Assembly: GCA_030603395.1 (NCBI GenBank)
Contig: JAUVXX010000004.1
Location: 3,597 to 67,596, forward strand
Source: a bacterium
GTDB lineage: Bacteria; Patescibacteriota; Minisyncoccia; Minisyncoccales; CG1-02-41-26
DNA length: 64,000 bases
Direction of reading: 5' to 3'
Under the pieces are notes generated by a model. The model was not told the DNA's origin. It made no database searches and saw only the letters and a list, made by a program, of their open reading frames with translations. Below are positions 28,631 through 61,217 of the stretch, piece by piece; the stretch's first letter is position 1; each line of letters opens with the position of its first letter. Made by a program: the position numbers and the translations under genes.

Positions 28631-28921
28631 ATGATTTCTAAAAAAGAAGTAGAACATGTGGCTAAGCTGGCTCGGCTTGGCTTGACCTGGAAAGAAATTG
28701 AGAAAATGCAAAAGGAATTGACTTTAATCTTAGATTATTTTGATTTACTAAAAGAGGTTGACGTTTCTCAGGTTCAACCAACCTCTCACTCAATTTTATT
28801 GGAGAACGTAGACCGAGAGGATATTGTCAAAAAAGAAAGCTTAGAGACAGTTAATAAAATTCTAGACGGGGCTCCAGCCAGAGAAAAAGGACACGTTAGG
28901 GTTAAAGGAATACTAAAGTAA
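28631..28921 (+). CDS. gatC: Glu/Asp-tRNA amidotransferase subunit C
   Basis: [10 protein letters not shown]... and position upstream of gatA. Confidence 0.85.
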
Positions 28922-28949
28922 TTCTCAATTTTTAATTATCAATTTTCAA

Positions 28950-30371
28950 ATGGTCAAGGGTCTTACAATTTCTGACATTCATCAGGGTTTGCGAAAGAAA
29001 GAATTTTCAGCCCAGGAATTAGCCCAGAGTTATTTTAAAAAAATAAATTCCCTGGATGAAAAATTGGGGGCTTTTTTGGAAATTACCCAAAACGAGGCAT
29101 TGTCACAAGCTAAAAGAGTGGATGAATTAATTTCTCAAGGAAAAAAAGTTTCTTTGATGACTGGAATACCCATGGCTATTAAAGATAATATTTTGGTCAA
29201 GGATGTAAAATGCACAGCCGCCTCAAAAATCCTTGAGGAATATCTGGCTCCCTATGAGGCAACTTCGGTTAAGAAGTTAAGAGGAGAGGGTGCTGTTTTT
29301 TTGGGTAAAACCAATCTGGATGAGTTTGGCATGGGAGCCTCAACCGAAAATTCAGCCTTCAAAAAGACGCGCAATCCTCACGACCCATCTCGAGTGCCCG
29401 GCGGCTCCTCGGGGGGCTCGGCGGTGGCGGTGGCGGCTGACGAGTCTTGCTGTGCTTTGGGTTCTGATACTGGTGGTTCGGTCCGTCAGCCAGCTGCCTT
29501 TTGTGGAGTAGTTGGACTGAAACCAACCTACGGAGCTGTTTCTCGCTACGGTTTAATAGCTTTCGCTTCTTCCCTCGACCAAATAGGTCCGATAGCAAAG
29601 AATGTGGAAGATTGTGAGATTGTTTTTAATGCTATTAAAGGAAAAGACCCTCTTGATTCAACTTCGGTTGAATCAAAATTTTCAATTTCCCATTTTCAAT
29701 TTTCAAACCCAAAAATAGGGGTTCCTAAAGAATATTTCGGAGAGGGGATTGAGCCGGGCGTAGAGAAAATTATCAAAGAAACCATTAAAAAAGTAGAAAA
29801 AGAAGGTGCTAAAATTGAAGAAATTTCTCTGCCTCACACCAAATATGCTTTAGCTTGCTATTATATCATCGCCACTTCCGAAGCAAGCGCCAATTTGGCA
29901 AGGTACGACGGAATAAAATATGGGTTGTCAAAGGATGATGAGCAAAAATCAGACCTTTTAGATGTTTATCTTAAAACAAGAGAAGAGGGATTTGGCCCGG
30001 AAGTTAAAAGAAGAATAATGCTTGGCACCTACACCTTATCGGCTGGCTATTACGAGGCCTATTATCTGAGAGCTCAAAAAGTGAGAACTTTAATCAAGCA
30101 GGATTTTGAGAAAGCTTTTCAAAAAGTGGATGTTATCTTCACCCCGGTCTCTCCTTTTGCTGCTTTCAAAATCGGCGAGAAAGTTAAAGACCCTCTGGCC
30201 ATGTATCTTTCAGATGTTTTTACTGCCTCGGTAAATTTGGCAGGCCTGCCAGCCCTTTCTCTGCCTTGCGGCAAGGTTCGCAAATTGCCGGTAGGGCTTC
30301 AAATAATTGGCAGACCGTTCCGAGAATCAGAAATTTTCCAGGTTGGCAAATTCGTCGAAAAAATAGTTTAA
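28950..30371 (+). CDS. gatA: Glu/Asp-tRNA amidotransferase subunit A
   Basis: Amidase signature [13 protein letters not shown]. Confidence 0.9.
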
Positions 30372-30947: not shown

Positions 30948-30984
30948 GGGTTGAATTTCCTCAGAGTTTAGTATAGGATAGACT

Positions 30985-31055
30985 CGCGGGGTGGAGAAGT
31001 AGTATCTTGCGAGGCCCATAACCTCGAGACGTCAGTGCAATTCTGGCCCCCGCAA
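30985..31055 (+). tRNA. Initiator-like tRNA-Met (CAU) with atypical D and T loops
   Basis: CGCGGGG...CCCCGCA-A acceptor with a C1:A72 mismatch, as in bacterial tRNA-fMet. Anticodon loop is CCCAUAA. The D-loop lacks GG and the T-loop reads TGCAATT. Confidence 0.55.
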
Positions 31056-31088
31056 CAGGAAACATTTTTCGTATAGCGAAAAATGCAC

Positions 31089-31224
31089 AGGAGGGGTCGG
31101 GAGGATTGGGTATCCTCCCGTGTAGGAAAACAGGCTTTCGCCGAAGGCGAAAACGTTAGAAACCGAGGGTGTCTAAGGAGCGGTGTTAGCGCACTCGCTC
31201 AAGGCGAGTGTCGCGTGCCGCGAC
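31089..31224 (+). ncRNA. Unclassified structured RNA motif, copy 1
   Basis: Shares five conserved blocks and two covarying helices with 39529-39640. It abuts the 5' end of the next tRNA. Confidence 0.5.
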
Positions 31225-31297
31225 GCCGGTGTAGCTCAGTGGTAGAGCAGAGTCTTCATAAGGCTAAGGTCGTTGGGTTCAAATCCCACCACCGGCA
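31225..31297 (+). tRNA. tRNA with CAU anticodon (elongator Met or Ile2)
   Basis: GCCGGTG/CACCGGC acceptor, TAGCTCAGTGGTAGAGC D-arm, TTCATAA anticodon loop and GGTTCAAATCC T-arm. Confidence 0.8.
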
Positions 31298-31300
31298 CAT

Positions 31301-37224: not shown

Positions 37225-37234
37225 AAATTTCTAA

Positions 37235-39211
<1,977 letters not shown>

Positions 39212-39236
39212 AGATGGCTAAATTCCAAAGGAGGGG

Positions 39237-39265
39237 TTGACAAGTTTAGAGAAGGGCTTTAATAT
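39237..39265 (+). promoter_or_regulatory. Promoter upstream of secE
   Basis: GGGGTTGACA, a 17-nt spacer, then TAATAT. Confidence 0.55.
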
Positions 39266-39301
39266 TGATTTAGAGCCCGAGAGGGCTTTTTTTAAAAAAC
39301 A

Positions 39302-39496
39302 TTGATGAATTTTTTAACTAAAATTAAAACTTTCTTTAAAGAAGTTTGGATTGAAGGCAAGAAGGTTGACTGGCCAACTCGTCAGCAAACTTTCAGATAC
39401 ACCTTGATTATTATTGGGATTTCGGCGGCCGTGGCTGCCTTTTTAGGAATTTTGGACTTCGGATTTCTTAAGATTTTAAACAGAATCATCTTTTGA
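39302..39496 (+). CDS. secE: Preprotein translocase subunit SecE
   Basis: 64 aa with a single C-terminal TM, a KKVDWPT motif and position upstream of nusG. Confidence 0.7.
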   Translation: MMNFLTKIKTFFKEVWIEGKKVDWPTRQQTFRYTLIIIGISAAVAAFLGILDFGFLKILNRIIF

Positions 39497-39528
39497 AGAG
39501 TCCGTTAGATTTGAGTAGTCTATTAGAT

Positions 39529-39640
39529 AGGAGAGGGGTCGGGAGAACCGCAGGTTCTCCCGTGTAGGAAAAGATTAAAAACCGAGGGTTTTTAAAGAGC
39601 GGTGTTAGCGCCCCGCCACAGCGGGGGTGCGTGCCGCGAC
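39529..39640 (+). ncRNA. Unclassified structured RNA motif, copy 2 (nusG 5' leader)
   Basis: Homologous to 31089-31224 with compensatory changes in two helices. It ends 18 nt before the nusG ATG. Confidence 0.5.
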
Positions 39641-39658
39641 TTACTCCCTGGCACCATT

Positions 39659-40204
39659 ATGCCAAAGCAAAAAATACAACAAGGTAAAAATTGGTATGTT
39701 CTCCATACCTATCCCGGAGAAGAGGATGCGGTGGCTCGGAATTTAAAACAACGTATTGAAAGTTTGAGCATGGAAGATAAAATCTTCAATGTTTTGGTAC
39801 CCAAAGAAAAAAAGATTAAGATTAAAAACGGCAAAAGGAAAGTAGTTGAGGAAAAGATTTATCCGGGGTATATCTTGGTTGAGATGGTGGTTACTGACGA
39901 CTCTTGGTATGTGGTCAGGAATACCCCTCGAGTGACCGGATTTATTGGGGCAGGGACCACTCCCGTTCCCGTTTCTTCCCAAGAAATAGATATTCTTAAG
40001 AAGAGAATGGGGGTTGAAGCTCCTCAATACAAGATTGATGTTACTCCCGGAAGTTTAATCAGGATTACCGATGGTTCGTTTAAAGATTTTGAGGGAAAGG
40101 TTTCAGAGATTGATGAGGAGAGAGGAAAAATTAAAGTTTTGGTAAATATTTTTGGCAGAGATACTCCGGTGGAGGTTGACTCTCTGCAAGTCAAAAAGTT
40201 ATAA
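39659..40204 (+). CDS. nusG: Transcription termination/antitermination factor NusG
   Basis: WYVLHTYPGEE, a KOW region. The start was set at MPKQK because the track start at 39602 lies within the RNA motif. Confidence 0.9.
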   Translation: MPKQKIQQGKNWYVLHTYPGEEDAVARNLKQRIESLSMEDKIFNVLVPKEKKIKIKNGKRKVVEEKIYPGYILVEMVVTDDSWYVVRNTPRVTGFIGAGTTPVPVSSQEIDILKKRMGVEAPQYKIDVTPGSLIRITDGSFKDFEGKVSEIDEERGKIKVLVNIFGRDTPVEVDSLQVKKL

Positions 40205-40348
40205 GCGCTCGGGTAGCTTGCCTCGGGGAGCAAACGGTCATTTGGGTGTTTGACAGAATAGTTTCCTTGAACGCCAAGTACATAAAAGTTCTCATGTTCG
40301 GTCATCCCCACCCGCCCTCCATGCTCTCCTCGGCAACTACCCTCGCCC
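40205..40348 (+). other. Long-range hairpin with a C-rich tract (element X2) in the nusG-rplK spacer
   Basis: GCGCTCGGGTAGCTTGCC... (40205-40231) pairs with ...GGCAACTACCCTCGCC (40323-40347). The tract CCCCACCCGCCCTCCATGC resembles the X1 loop. Confidence 0.5.
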
Positions 40349-40367
40349 TTAATTACCTTATCTTAAT

Positions 40368-40790
40368 ATGGCTAAAAAAGTAGCAGCAACAGTAAAACTT
40401 CATATTCCGGCTGGTAAAGCGACGCCAGCCCCACCTATCGGGCCTGCTTTGGCTCAGCATGGCGTAAATATCGGGGATTTTTGTCAGAAATTTAATGAGG
40501 CCAGTAAAGGACAGGAGGGTTTTACTCTTCCGGTAGAGGTTAGCATTTACCAAGATAGAACTTTTGATTTTAAATTGAAGACCCCTTTGGCCTCAGAACT
40601 AATAAAGAAAGCGGCTGGCATTGAAAAAGGTTCTGGTGAACCCAATAAAACCAAGGTTGGTAAAATTACCAAAGCTCAGTTAAGAGAGATTGCTCAAAAA
40701 AAGATACCTGATTTAAATACTGAAAATATTGACAAAGCCATGAAAATAATAGAAGGCACCGCCAAGAATATGGGAGTTACGGTCGAGTAA
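40368..40790 (+). CDS. rplK: 50S ribosomal protein L11
   Basis: MAKKV..., [22 protein letters not shown]. Confidence 0.95.
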
Positions 40791-40805
40791 TTCACACTTT
40801 TAAAT

Positions 40806-41381
40806 ATGATACTTTCCGACAAAGACATAAAAAAATATATCAAAGAGGGAAAGATTAAAATTACACCTAAGCCCAATTTCAAAGAACAATTAGGGCCTTG
40901 CTCTCTGGATTTGCATTTGGGTAATATTTTTAAAACTTTCAAGCCCTCTCAATATCCCTATTTAGACCTCAAAAGGATGGTCAATTTCGAGAAGTTTATG
41001 GAGGAAGTGAAGATACAGGACGATGCTCCTTTTATCTTACAGCCCAAAGAGTTTGTTTTGGCCATCACCAAAGAAGAGATTGCTTTGAGTAATGATTTGA
41101 TGGCTCGACTTGATGGTAGAAGTTCCATTGGCAGATTGGGAGTGGTTGTTCATTCAACAGCAGCCCGTTTTGACCCGGGCTGGCAAGGAAAGGCAGTCAT
41201 GGAACTTGGTAATTTGGGAATTATGCCAGTCGTTTTATATTCTGGGATGCGGATTTGTGCCCTAACTTTCGAAACTCTTTCTTCTCCCTGCGAGACCCCT
41301 TACTCAAAAAAGAAAGCCCAGAAATACGCTAAACAGAAATCACCCAGAGCTAGCAGAATAAATCAAGAATTTAAAAAATAA
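40806..41381 (+). CDS. dcd: dCTP deaminase
   Basis: LDGRSSIGRLGVVVH and DPGWQG match Dcd (E. coli LDGRSSLARLGLMVH, DPGWSG). Confidence 0.9.
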   Translation: MILSDKDIKKYIKEGKIKITPKPNFKEQLGPCSLDLHLGNIFKTFKPSQYPYLDLKRMVNFEKFMEEVKIQDDAPFILQPKEFVLAITKEEIALSNDLMARLDGRSSIGRLGVVVHSTAARFDPGWQGKAVMELGNLGIMPVVLYSGMRICALTFETLSSPCETPYSKKKAQKYAKQKSPRASRINQEFKK

Positions 41382-43713: not shown

Positions 43714-43752
43714 ATTTCTAATTTCTAATTTCTAATTTCCAATTTCCAATTT
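43714..43752 (+). repeat. G-free heptad tandem repeat forming the whole deoC-gatB spacer
   Basis: ATTTCTA x3 and ATTTCCA x2, then ATTT, ending at the gatB ATG. Confidence 0.9.
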
Positions 43753-45234
43753 ATGTACAAGCCAATAATTGGTCTTGAGATTCACGTTGAGCTGAAAACA
43801 AAGTCCAAGCTGTTTTGTGCTTGCAGTAACAATCCGGACGAAACGAAGCCCAATGTAAACATTTGCCCTATTTGTATGGGGCATCCAGGAGTTCTTCCTG
43901 TAATTAATAAAGAGGCAGTAAAAAAAATAGTTAAAGCTGCTTTAGCTTTGAATTGTGAGATTGCTAAAAGTTCTGAGTTTTACCGAAAACTTTATTTTTA
44001 TCCTGACCTGCCCAAGGGATATCAGATAAGCCAGGACATCTCTCCTTTAGCCAAAAATGGTTTTATCAAAATTGACGGTAAAAAAATACGCGTTCATGAA
44101 ATTCACTTAGAAGAAGATGTGGCCAAATTAGTTCACCCCCAGGGAGAAGATTATTCTTTAGTGGATTTTAATCGGGCAGGGATTCCTCTAATAGAATTGG
44201 TAACAGAGCCAGACATTAATTCAGCGTTAGTAGCAAGAAGATTCGCCCAGGAGTTGCAGCTGATTTTAAGGTATTTGAATGTTTCTGATGCTAATATGGA
44301 AAAGGGCCAAATGCGAGTTGAAGTCAATGTTTCACTTTCTTCCGAACATAGCAAAAAATTAGGCACTAAGGTTGAAATTAAGAATTTAAATTCTTTCCGG
44401 GCGGTAAACGAGGCAACAAATTTTGAAATTGCCAGACAAAAAAAACTATTGGAAGAAAATAAAAAAGTAGTTCCCGAAACAATGGGCTGGGATGACGAAA
44501 AAAGATTGACATTTTCTCAGAGAGAAAAAGGAGGAGGCGCCTTTTCTACAGAAGATTTTCATGCGCCAGAACCCAACCTTTTTCCGCTTCGTCTTACAGA
44601 TACCTACATTGAAAAAATTCGGTCAGAGATTCCAGAATTACCTTCTCAAAGAGAAGAAAGGTTTAAAAAAGAATACCATCTTTCAGGTAAAGAGATAGGG
44701 CTTTATGTTATTCAAAAGGATTTAGGGGAATATTTTGAAAAAGTGGTTTCGGAATTGAACAATTGGGTCAAAGCCAAGAAATTAAAAGAGAAAATCACCG
44801 GAAATGAATTTAAAAAATTAGTTAAATTGGCTTCAAATTATATCTCAACCGATCTCCAGGGTCTTTTGAGGGGGGCTTCGGCTAGGGGAGAGGATTTTTT
44901 AATTACTCCTGAAAACTTTGCTGAATTTATCAGTATGATTTATTTGGGTGAGATTTCAAGCAAGATTGCCAAAACTTTGTTAAAAGAAATGTTTGGTGCA
45001 GGAGGAGACCCTTCTCAAATTATTGAAGAGAAAGGATTGCGCCAGATTACCGATGAAACAGAGCTTGAGAAAATTGCTAAGGACGTGATTAAAAAGAACC
45101 CCAAGCCGGTTGGAGATTACCAGAAAGGCAAAGAGGAGGCATTGCAATTTTTAGTGGGACAGATTATGGCTCAAACTAAAGGGAAGGCCAATCCCGAGAA
45201 AATAAATAAAATCTTGCGAAAATTATTAAGTTAA
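43753..45234 (+). CDS. gatB: Glu/Asp-tRNA amidotransferase subunit B
   Basis: IGLEIHVEL, CPICMGHPGVLP and a C-terminal YqeY-like tail. Confidence 0.9.
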   Translation: MYKPIIGLEIHVELKTKSKLFCACSNNPDETKPNVNICPICMGHPGVLPVINKEAVKKIVKAALALNCEIAKSSEFYRKLYFYPDLPKGYQISQDISPLAKNGFIKIDGKKIRVHEIHLEEDVAKLVHPQGEDYSLVDFNRAGIPLIELVTEPDINSALVARRFAQELQLILRYLNVSDANMEKGQMRVEVNVSLSSEHSKKLGTKVEIKNLNSFRAVNEATNFEIARQKKLLEENKKVVPETMGWDDEKRLTFSQREKGGGAFSTEDFHAPEPNLFPLRLTDTYIEKIRSEIPELPSQREERFKKEYHLSGKEIGLYVIQKDLGEYFEKVVSELNNWVKAKKLKEKITGNEFKKLVKLASNYISTDLQGLLRGASARGEDFLITPENFAEFISMIYLGEISSKIAKTLLKEMFGAGGDPSQIIEEKGLRQITDETELEKIAKDVIKKNPKPVGDYQKGKEEALQFLVGQIMAQTKGKANPEKINKILRKLLS

Positions 45235-60848: not shown

Positions 60849-60877
60849 AACGAAATTTTTTGGTAGAATCTCAAGAA

Positions 60878-60960
60878 GGGTAGGTACCTAAGTGGTCAAA
60901 GGGGGCTGACTGTAAATCAGCTGGCTTCGGCCTTCGGGGGTTCGAATCCCTCCCTGCCCA
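60878..60960 (+). tRNA. tRNA-Tyr (GUA), long variable arm
   Basis: GGGTAGG/CCTGCCC acceptor, GCTGA-CTGTAAA-TCAGC anticodon arm, a variable stem-loop and GGTTCGAATCC. Confidence 0.85.
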
Positions 60961-61049: not shown

Positions 61050-61211
61050 ATGGCAAAAAAGAAGAAACCATTTATAAAACTTCAGTGTTCTGAATGTAAA
61101 AGAATCAATTATTTCACCAGCAAATCAAGGCAAGCTGAGGGTAAGTTAGAATTGAAAAAGTTCTGTAAATTTTGTAGAAAGCATACCTTACACAAAGAGA
61201 TGAAAAAGTGA
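61050..61211 (+). CDS. rpmG: 50S ribosomal protein L33
   Basis: [25 protein letters not shown]...[13 protein letters not shown]. The track start at 60999 overlaps tRNA-Thr. Confidence 0.85.
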
Positions 61212-61217
61212 ATCATT

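Follow-up and report, generated by a model that had tools for sequence, protein, structure and literature searches.

A structured RNA element in the secE–nusG spacer of a Patescibacteria genome: a candidate family of mobile cassettes outside Rfam

The secE–nusG spacer and its RNA motif

The stretch of DNA studied here, hereafter called the window, is 64,000 nt long and contains the genes secE and nusG, followed by rplK after a further spacer of 163 nt (secE-to-rplK region, 39302–40790). The coordinates of the features are collected in Table 1. A promoter-like, sigma-70-like sequence, TTGACA-17-TAATAT, is located upstream of secE at 39237–39265. Because neither promoter-like nor terminator-like sites were found inside the secE–nusG spacer, it is probable that secE, the spacer and nusG form a single transcript; no terminator was found just after the spacer either. 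The ATG at the 3' edge of the spacer gives a NusG of 181 residues, which is the length of nearly all of its 120 best homologues (those with names belong to Pacebacteria, Parcubacteria and Gribaldobacteria). The initial annotation was therefore right to reject the GTG at 39602 as the start of nusG; the false extended ORF that begins there is accounted for by the cassette discussed below. The organism itself belongs to the Parcubacteria type of Patescibacteria.

Table 1. Features of the secE–nusG region and of the tRNA-Met site in the window
Feature	Coordinates	Strand	Basis
secE ORF, 64 aa	39302–39496	+	Stop TGA 39494–39496; PF00584 (SecE) on syntenic ORFs of relatives
secE–nusG spacer, 162 nt, read as the inserted cassette	39497–39658	+	Alignment with L005; blastn breakpoints at 39497 and 39658
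nusG, 181 aa, ATG 39659	39659–40204	+	Lengths of NusG homologues; alignment with L005
Tandem 18-nt direct repeat in the 5' flank of the core, TTTGAAGAGTCCGTTAGA / TTTGAGTAGTCTATTAGA	39492–39527	+	Repeat search, 78% identity
Motif core, copy 2, about 112 nt, multi-helix	39529–39640	+	Covariance-model matches of 122 and 119 bits; fold z = −4.2
P2 hairpin, CGGGAGAACC / GGTTCTCCCG, 10 bp, 3-nt loop	39540–39562	+	Inverted repeat; fold; three P2 pairs changed on both sides in the family
J2/3, (G)UGUAGGAAAA, conserved unpaired junction	39563–39574	+	Invariant in every full-length copy, partly forced because the scan pattern required J2/3
P4 hairpin, TTAAAAACC / GGTTTTTAA, 9 bp, loop GAG	39575–39595	+	Inverted repeat; covariation of one pair from A-U to G-C, seen in 10 of 27 sequences
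3' domain, GAGCGGUGUUAGCG, variable P6 hairpin, GCGUGCCGCGAC	39596–39640	+	P5 invariant; six P6 pairs changed on both sides
18-nt tail, TTACTCCCTGGCACCATT	39641–39658	+	CUCC 39644–39647 pairs with GGAG 39530–39533, last ~9 nt mostly unpaired (both predicted)
Copy 1 cassette, 169 nt	31056–31224	+	Alignment with the empty site of L060
Copy 1 core, extra P3 hairpin at 31134–31155, no tail	31087–31224	+	Covariance-model match of 157 bits
tRNA-fMet	30985–31056		tRNA search
Elongator-type tRNA-Met	31225–31298		tRNA search

An RNA motif had been proposed to fill this spacer and to end 18 nt before the nusG start codon, and both the covariance models and the predicted fold agree with that placement. 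The two scores of copy 2 were obtained with covariance models made from other copies, and its folding energy is −62.9 kcal/mol, the z value being calculated against 200 dinucleotide shuffles. The core begins with the purine-rich strand AGGAGAGGGG, continues through P2, J2/3, P4 and P5–P6, and finishes with GCCGCGAC. The sequence of the P2 hairpin has no chance expectation in shuffles of the window, and the only inverted repeats that a repeat search finds in the element are the internal hairpins P2 and P4. The 18 nt between the core and the ATG hold no GGAGG-like element, as had been remarked; this absence is real, but it is special neither to nusG nor to the motif, being the norm in this genome and lineage. 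Most ORFs of the window, and of the ribosomal-protein operon at locus L031, are likewise preceded by A/U-rich sequence without a GGAGG-like element. The pairing suggested at first between CTCCC of the tail and the GGGAG arm is not the one predicted, because GGGAG is already paired within P2; the partner of the tail CUCC in the predicted fold is the GGAG at the 5' edge of the core.

The other copy in the window, copy 1, precedes an elongator-type tRNA-Met gene. Its last base directly adjoins the +1 of this tRNA, and the insertion lies between the discriminator base of tRNA-fMet and that +1. It also folds more stably than its shuffles (z = −3.9). Copies 1 and 2 are 78% identical overall; where they differ in the hairpins P2, P4 and P6, the changes are compensatory. 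The repeat search relates 39568–39611 to 31149–31192 at 86% identity, and the alignment widens to 39529–39640 versus 31087–31224. The P3 hairpin is optional, being present in the window only in copy 1.

Family, architectures and downstream genes

This RNA family is undescribed in Rfam 15. With its 4227 models at gathering thresholds, only five tRNAs were matched in the whole window; a search of 39200–40400 at E ≤ 10 gave only chance-level matches over the motif (16 bits at most), and none fell on the motif at ten other motif-bearing loci searched at E ≤ 5. Full-text literature searches found no description of the motif either. It is called as a tRNA neither by ARAGORN nor by the Rfam tRNA model. 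Among the models of known self-cleaving ribozymes (hammerhead, twister, twister-sister, pistol, hatchet, HDV-like and hairpin) none matches the motif, the sole ribozyme-model match being to twister-sister on the opposite strand, with 15.8 bits and E = 3.6. Likenesses seen by eye to loop B of the hairpin ribozyme, the L11-binding region of 23S rRNA, the 530 loop of 16S rRNA, conserved regions of RNase P and domain 5 of group II introns were discarded, as they consist of short words set in a different topology.

The family was searched for with a pattern made from two conserved blocks and then with covariance models. The pattern matched 5 loci among 4 Patescibacteria genomes of GTDB and a further 35 in metagenomes, and the models confirmed all 5 of the former and 31 of the latter at 48–141 bits. 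The remaining metagenome matches (L026, L039, L048 and L052) reach 15 bits at best and were rejected, as were those on viral contigs (L009–L016), which are chance matches within genes; BLAST searches of phage and plasmid collections gave no match. The family amounts to some 40 copies in Patescibacteria contigs, with all confirmed loci Patescibacteria-like, and in several cases (L005, L027, L031 and L037) two copies are found at one locus. In two members, the 5' half and the tail are those of the family but a different 3' domain has taken the place of the usual one; the family must therefore be wider than the scans could detect. The hairpins P2, P3 and P6, and even the whole 3' domain, vary among the copies of a single genome.

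Covariation supports the helices P2, P4 and P6. In 27 distinct sequences, 97.9% of the cells are in standard pairs (41–53% in slid controls), 10 pairs are changed on both sides (3 in P2, 1 in P4 and 6 in P6) and the covariation score is reached by none of 500 shuffles, all these figures being somewhat inflated because the alignment was fitted to the model. With compensatory substitutions in its helices, the motif is a structured RNA in the generic sense, and its G-U pairs point to an RNA read from the + strand. P1 (GUC/GAC) is weak and broken in some members, and P5 is invariant. Long unpaired stretches, namely GUGUAGGAAAA (J2/3), GGUGUUAGCG and GUGCCGCGAC, are also invariant, which for the first two is partly circular since the pattern scans forced them. 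The 5' edge of the core is the conserved purine-rich (A/C)GGAGRGGGG.

All the copies lie on the same strand as the gene downstream, and they come in two architectures. Class A is a bare core, with neither a 5' closing hairpin nor a tail; it is found only before tRNAs and flush with their +1, at four loci (tRNA-Met twice, tRNA-Ala and tRNA-Gly). Class B adds to the core a closing helix for the purine-rich strand and a tail of 17–19 nt. This helix is formed either by an upstream hairpin P0, CCCNC/GNGGG, with the compensatory variants CCUCU/AGAGG and CCCAU/AUGGG, or, as in the window, by GGAGAG paired with CUCUCU/CUCCCU of the tail. The tails are homologous in at least 20 copies, with the consensus CUNACUNNGUAUUACCACU; in about 20 of the 22 ORF contexts the tail is followed directly by the start codon, which is ATG in every one of these, and at two loci (tRNA-Ala and tRNA-Tyr) directly by the tRNA +1. 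The junction is not flush in L030, with 4 extra nt, nor in L029 and L020, with 27 and 86 nt before the ATG, and in L023 a tail without a core stands upstream of rpsK. Over their final 9 nt, the tails have a predicted unpaired fraction of 60–78%, and they place A at −3 and −6.

The genes that follow the element code for the ribosomal proteins S20, S12, L27, L14, L16, S18, S13 and L33, plus L11 (read directly in L005), for four tRNA species, and for NusG, dCTP deaminase, a ClpB-like ATPase, GPI, a PD-(D/E)XK nuclease, DivIC, an O-antigen ligase, a Mur ligase and a DegT aminotransferase, the proteins having been named by Pfam, by reading, or through the annotations of relatives. Ribosomal proteins represent 9 of the 22 distinct protein contexts, compared to an expectation of about 7% estimated from typical gene counts (binomial p ~ 1e-5), and this enrichment could reflect function rather than an insertion bias. 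Several copies have canonical sigma-70-like promoters (TTGACA-17-TATAAT) 0–25 nt upstream, and others are internal to the S10-spc ribosomal-protein operon, where they precede rplP and rplN. It follows that the element is part of transcripts, as their leader or between two cistrons. In the window, promoters seem to be placed such that transcription of the first tRNA of an operon begins within about 1–2 nt of +1.

Several other roles or partners for the tail and its surroundings were considered and rejected. As a promoter starting at the ATG or at the tRNA +1, the tail would have the −12 to −7 hexamer nGTAtT, with G at the critical position −11; TATTAC, the other possible hexamer, is separated from +1 by only 4 nt, and several copies have canonical promoters upstream. 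Pairing of the 5' flank with the tail gives RNAduplex energies no better than those of shuffles, at inconsistent positions. For a pseudoknot between URNUACC of the tail and GGUGUUA, only one-sided changes are visible since the pattern fixed GGUGUUA, and the two copies without GGUGUUA still have the tail. CCAC of the tail, as another partner of GNGGG, shows no covariation, unlike the upstream strand of P0. A suspected second family of C-rich elements dissolved into tRNA-like remnants (L041) and cases unrelated to one another.

Presence and absence among relatives

Relatives are taken here as contigs encoding a NusG that is 81–99% identical to that of the window. The gene order gyrB-secE-nusG-rplK is kept in them, with SecE recognized by PF00584 on the syntenic ORFs. 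The secE–nusG spacers measure 15, 2, 3, 3 and 23 nt in L001, L003, L005, L006 and L007, respectively, and the motif is in none of the five; the motif covariance model has no match in L001, L003, L004 or L006–L008. The idea that the motif is a conserved leader of the nusG/L11 operon does not survive this comparison, since five relatives of the same gene order do without it at this place.

The closest relative is L005, with a NusG 99% identical to that of the window and coding DNA 93–97% identical. When the window is aligned with L005 and with L060, a contig from the same sample, homology breaks exactly at intergenic spacers. In the place of the secE–nusG cassette, L005 has TAAACTATG, which reads TAA-ACT-ATG and thus leaves a spacer of 3 nt (ACT); the stop codon of secE is TAA in L005 versus TGA in the window, and the second codon of nusG is GCA versus CCA. 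Compared with L005, the entire spacer of the window is extra sequence. L005 has two copies of its own within 5 kb, one before rplK and the other before dcd (dCTP deaminase), and at these sites the window has an unrelated 163-nt hairpin and a 15-nt spacer, respectively. In L060, the genes of tRNA-fMet and tRNA-Met abut, which represents the empty site of copy 1; compared with it, the filled site shows a clean insertion of 169 nt, without duplication and without inverted ends. The four motif sites are all polymorphic between the genome of the window and that of L005/L060, at about 95% identity. At three of them the native spacer is 0, 3 or 15 nt, and at two sites the element stands in place of the native spacer instead of splitting it.

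Three more distant syntenic relatives have 5–19 nt between the two tRNA-Met genes and lack the motif. It is present at the same tRNA-Met site in L021, whose GatA is 66% identical to that of the window, which hints at either long retention or a hot spot. As judged from these alignments, the secE–nusG gap of the window is a recently acquired copy and not a conserved control leader of nusG. In our opinion, structured spacers shared by different operons should be checked in relatives before they are called conserved regulators.

Possible nature and role of the element

We think that the secE–nusG spacer is a copy of an undescribed Patescibacteria family of mobile, non-coding, RNA-structured insertion cassettes of about 105–175 nt, a reading to which we give a probability of roughly 0.5. 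The cassettes would be co-transcribed with the downstream gene, would be gained and lost over short time scales, and would settle in very short spacers directly before tRNA genes and start codons. Class A may be tolerated only before tRNAs, where the cut of RNase P at the tRNA +1 would restore the correct 5' end. In class B, the tail may work as a start-codon adaptor, which would keep the stable fold about one ribosome footprint away from the AUG and would supply the A(−3)/A(−6) context in place of the translational coupling destroyed by the insertion, so that the downstream cistron could remain translatable without a Shine-Dalgarno sequence. In the window, the cassette would have replaced a 3-nt coupling spacer, with nusG now starting from the cassette tail, and it would not be a nusG-specific regulator. 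The conserved fold would most likely serve the propagation of the element itself or a generic cis role in processing or stability, and the data fit an RNA fold under selection within the cassette. No gene for mobility, be it of a transposase, a reverse transcriptase or another enzyme, was linked to the element. Two tailed copies are exactly flush with a tRNA +1, which the adaptor idea does not require. The invariant unpaired stretches, which one would sooner expect in a functional RNA than in a parasite, count against a mobile cassette.

Small, non-coding, multi-copy elements in intergenic or intercistronic positions are well represented by the MITE-like repeats ERIC/IRU, REP/BIME, the Correia elements of Neisseria and RUP/BOX of pneumococcus. 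These resemble the present element in that their presence varies between strains, they are transcribed with their neighbours and they fold as RNA. However, each of them is a long imperfect palindrome bounded by terminal inverted repeats, usually with target-site duplications, and they are found in both orientations, whereas the element described here has a multi-branch fold with invariant unpaired junctions, a strict orientation and a fixed place directly 5' of the next gene. It shares with MITEs and REPs the multiple non-coding copies that differ in presence between close strains, but the filled and empty sites of copy 1 reveal neither terminal inverted repeats nor a target-site duplication. 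Patescibacteria have tiny genomes with almost no spacers, and this lineage lacks Shine-Dalgarno sequences; a cassette that comes to lie again and again between packed translation genes, whose expression survives, would show how such genomes tolerate mobile DNA, and its tail would be an example of a minimal start-site context that is portable. Being outside Rfam, well supported by covariation, invariant in its junctions and represented by some 40 copies, the family is a ready candidate for a new class of RNA.

A host-beneficial role as a punctuation module is possible, even if we consider it unlikely. Core and tail would be cut at the 3' boundary, by an endonuclease or by the RNA itself, releasing leaderless AUG mRNAs and mature tRNA 5' ends, and the fold would remain as a 3' cap that protects the upstream RNA. 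Such arrangements have precedents. In mitochondrial tRNA punctuation, cleavage at the edge of a folded RNA makes the next 5' end, including those of leaderless mRNAs, and the 5S rRNA of haloarchaea has upstream a tRNA-like element that is cut by tRNase Z. The likeness lies in a folded RNA flush with the 5' end of the next functional RNA; unlike these cases, the fold here is not a recognisable tRNA, and cleavage of the copies before ORFs is hypothetical. The punctuation role is favoured by a 3' boundary that coincides with the tRNA +1 (6 loci) or with the A of an ATG start, by the copies placed between cistrons of operons, by bare cores that end exactly at the RNase P site, by tRNA transcripts that seem to begin so close to +1, and by the conserved tail of fixed length, which together with the junction nucleotides resembles a substrate strand docking on the core. 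Nevertheless, the known self-cleaving ribozymes offer no match, and no small ribozyme is known to cut at its 3' boundary unless it pairs with the sequence that follows. Close relatives dispense with the element, the three junctions that are not flush (L030, L029 and L020) do not suit a cut at the start of the next gene, and neither does the coreless tail that still precedes an ATG in L023. Moreover, flush junctions are largely forced because the native spacers are only 0–15 nt; with spacers this short and tRNA transcripts that seem to start within 1–2 nt of +1, almost any tolerated insertion would be nearly flush.

Another role, which we hold to be rather improbable, is that of a leader selected for highly expressed genes, which would promote initiation of translation independently of a Shine-Dalgarno sequence or stabilise the mRNA: a compact fold that shields the 5' side or attracts the ribosome would hold the AUG at a fixed distance. 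In Bacteroidetes, starts independent of Shine-Dalgarno sequences are Kozak-like, with A at −3, −6 and −12. The end of the tail, A(−6)CCA(−3)CU-AUG, before genes without Shine-Dalgarno sequences is similar, but here the start context is carried by the portable 17–19 nt tail of a structured element, and its effect on initiation is putative. The constant distance of 17–19 nt between core and AUG, the unpaired tail end, the enrichment of ribosomal-protein genes, the genomes without Shine-Dalgarno sequences and the conserved purine-rich GGAGRGGGG at the 5' edge of the core would all suit such a leader. It is at odds with the same element standing before tRNAs, which are not translated and would gain no protection once RNase P has cleaved; also, closely related strains express the same genes without the element, and other genes of the same operons have A/U-rich spacers of 2–30 nt. 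It is very unlikely, in turn, that the copies serve as sources of a stable small RNA acting in trans, freed by RNase P and other enzymes from tRNA and ribosomal-protein transcripts, with a level coupled to the translation apparatus. Cut out of tRNA operons, bare cores would indeed yield discrete RNAs of about 140 nt, the complex junction has conserved unpaired bases, and the same tRNA-Met site is occupied in the distant genome of L021; but most relatives lack the element, including the closest one at that very site, the copies before ORFs have no evident signal for forming a 3' end, and copies from a single genome differ in P2, P3, P6 and even the entire 3' domain.

The initial annotation favoured a conserved regulatory leader common to tRNA operons and the nusG/L11 operon, acting through antitermination, growth-rate control or an autoregulatory site, and this has become highly improbable. 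Part of it holds: a real structured RNA is common to a tRNA operon and the nusG-rplK region, and the family is strongly associated with tRNA and ribosomal-protein genes. What does not hold is a conserved control point of nusG/L11, given its absence from all five relatives of the same gene order. For processive antitermination, Rfam gives no match to the put/EAR models at the window or the locus, the spacer has no boxA-like sequence on the + strand (matches to the boxA consensus in the window are at chance level, 29 versus 36 expected), and there is no terminator-like site to override. Rfam families of riboswitches, leaders and antitermination elements are without a match, and a riboswitch is further opposed by bare cores lying 0 nt from the tRNA +1, which leave no room for an expression platform, by the lack of a terminator and by the heterogeneous set of genes. 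Ribosomal-protein leaders such as those of L10, L20, S15 or L1/L11 are also structured RNAs directly upstream of their genes, as is the motif before rplK in L005; however, each of them is single-copy, belongs to one operon, is conserved across relatives and mimics one rRNA site, while the motif is found in front of at least 9 different ribosomal-protein genes as well as of tRNAs and unrelated genes, and close relatives do without it. As the motif stands before at least 22 different genes, which form no coherent regulon, no single protein ligand is implied, and one autoregulatory protein could not account for so diverse a set; an autoregulatory leader of one operon is equally at variance with the lack of conservation at the locus.

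Returning to mobile cassettes, their spread could be combined with a punctuation role: an RNA that sets the next 5' end, by self-cleavage or by guiding a nuclease, and that moves like a SINE through an RNA intermediate. We regard this combination as fairly improbable, and the RNA intermediate is conceived purely by analogy. Such a spread would explain the strict orientation, the clean junctions at RNA-processing sites and the bias towards highly transcribed genes; if the fold does define RNA 5' ends or moves via RNA, this would be a new mechanism. The element has in common with the tRNA-derived SINEs and other non-autonomous retroelements of eukaryotes a short structured RNA without an ORF, a specific orientation and highly transcribed contexts. 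Unlike in SINEs, no reverse transcriptase partner, poly-A or target duplication is seen. The topology is that of a four-way junction similar to a tRNA, with the 3' strand of P5 continuing straight into the 3' strand of P1, and the word GUGUAG is common to the element and the start of the adjacent tRNA.

Boundaries of the cassette before nusG

At the 5' edge of the cassette (the folded-RNA motif with its flanks), an 18-nt tandem duplication covers both the secE stop codon and the sequence that flanks the motif on its 5' side. If this duplication were absent, the distance from the TGA to the start of the cassette would be 14 nt; in L005, the closest relative of the window, the distance is similar (10 nt). 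At the other edge, UGGCA in the tail that abuts the nusG start codon is complementary to UGCCA, formed by the UG of the start codon and the new second codon, CCA, and their pairing could form a small predicted hairpin across the nusG start. Among ORFs located downstream of the motif, approximately 40% start with ATGCC; among the ORFs of the window, the share is approximately 18%.

Features in the window and in related loci (window coordinates unless a locus is named)
Feature	Position	Remark
Tandem duplication	39492-39527	18 nt
UGGCA/UGCCA	39649-39664	
Region with TAGGAT	30948-30985	hexamer 5 nt before tRNA-fMet +1
Region with TGGTAGAAT	60850-60878	hexamer 8 nt before tRNA-Tyr +1
GGGGTTGA(C/A)	31399, 33389, 63252, 39233, 30947	
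AATTTCTAATTTCTAATT leader	28920-28952, 37226-37261, 43720-43755, ~51070 (minus strand)	repeat families D6 and D9
gyrB	37259-39211	650 aa
gyrB of two relatives	L006:6003-9611, L007:6008-9676	~1200 aa
Imperfect hairpin	40205-40367	163 nt, -54 kcal/mol
rplK and the dCTP deaminase gene after it	40368-41381	
rpmG (L33)	61050-61212	9 nt 3' of tRNA-Thr
Motif variant	L027:3529-3838	
Insert at tRNA-fMet/tRNA-Met	L007:1713-1941	229 nt

Promoters and other leaders

The -10-like hexamers TAGGAT and TGGTAGAAT would place the transcription start within approximately 1-2 nt of the mature 5' end of tRNA-fMet and tRNA-Tyr, respectively, and because of this short predicted distance the first tRNAs of both operons may be almost leaderless. 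The recurrent block GGGGTTGA(C/A), which comprises repeat family D11 plus the regions upstream of secE and tRNA-fMet, looks like an extended -35 element common to promoters of this genome. There is also a second conserved type of leader, AATTTCTAATTTCTAATT..., which is A/U-rich, lacks a Shine-Dalgarno sequence and, in several genes, extends all the way to the ATG; these are gyrB, gatA and the ORF that starts at 43753. The gyrB gene of the window has no intein, whereas an intein (PF14890) is present in that of two relatives.

The nusG-rplK spacer and the genes after rplK

The nusG-rplK spacer consists of a long imperfect hairpin unrelated to the motif, and no second copy of it was found, either elsewhere in the window or in the loci retrieved for comparison. 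The spacer measures -4 (overlapping), 5, 6, 26 or 77 nt in relatives, and in L005 it is occupied by the motif itself. The hairpin looks like a second insertion, different from the motif. Directly after rplK, the dCTP deaminase gene takes the place of rplA (L1), which is also missing from this position in relatives L001 and L003-L007. A subgroup of Parcubacteria without L1 has been reported, and the gene order found here fits such a subgroup.

tRNA-linked sites and contig ends

In the window, a small rpmG lies between tRNA-Thr and tRNA-Trp. The matching position in the motif-bearing locus L027 holds a motif variant whose 3' domain is of another type. A tailed copy of the motif is also present at tRNA-Tyr in that locus. 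The tRNA-fMet/tRNA-Met junction, where copy 1 lies in the window, carries a different inserted sequence in the relative L007, in which the covariance model built from the motif copies gave no match; the junction seems to be an insertion hot spot. Several metagenome contigs (L023, L049 and L056) end within or beside the motif, the outcome expected if a multi-copy repeat breaks assemblies.
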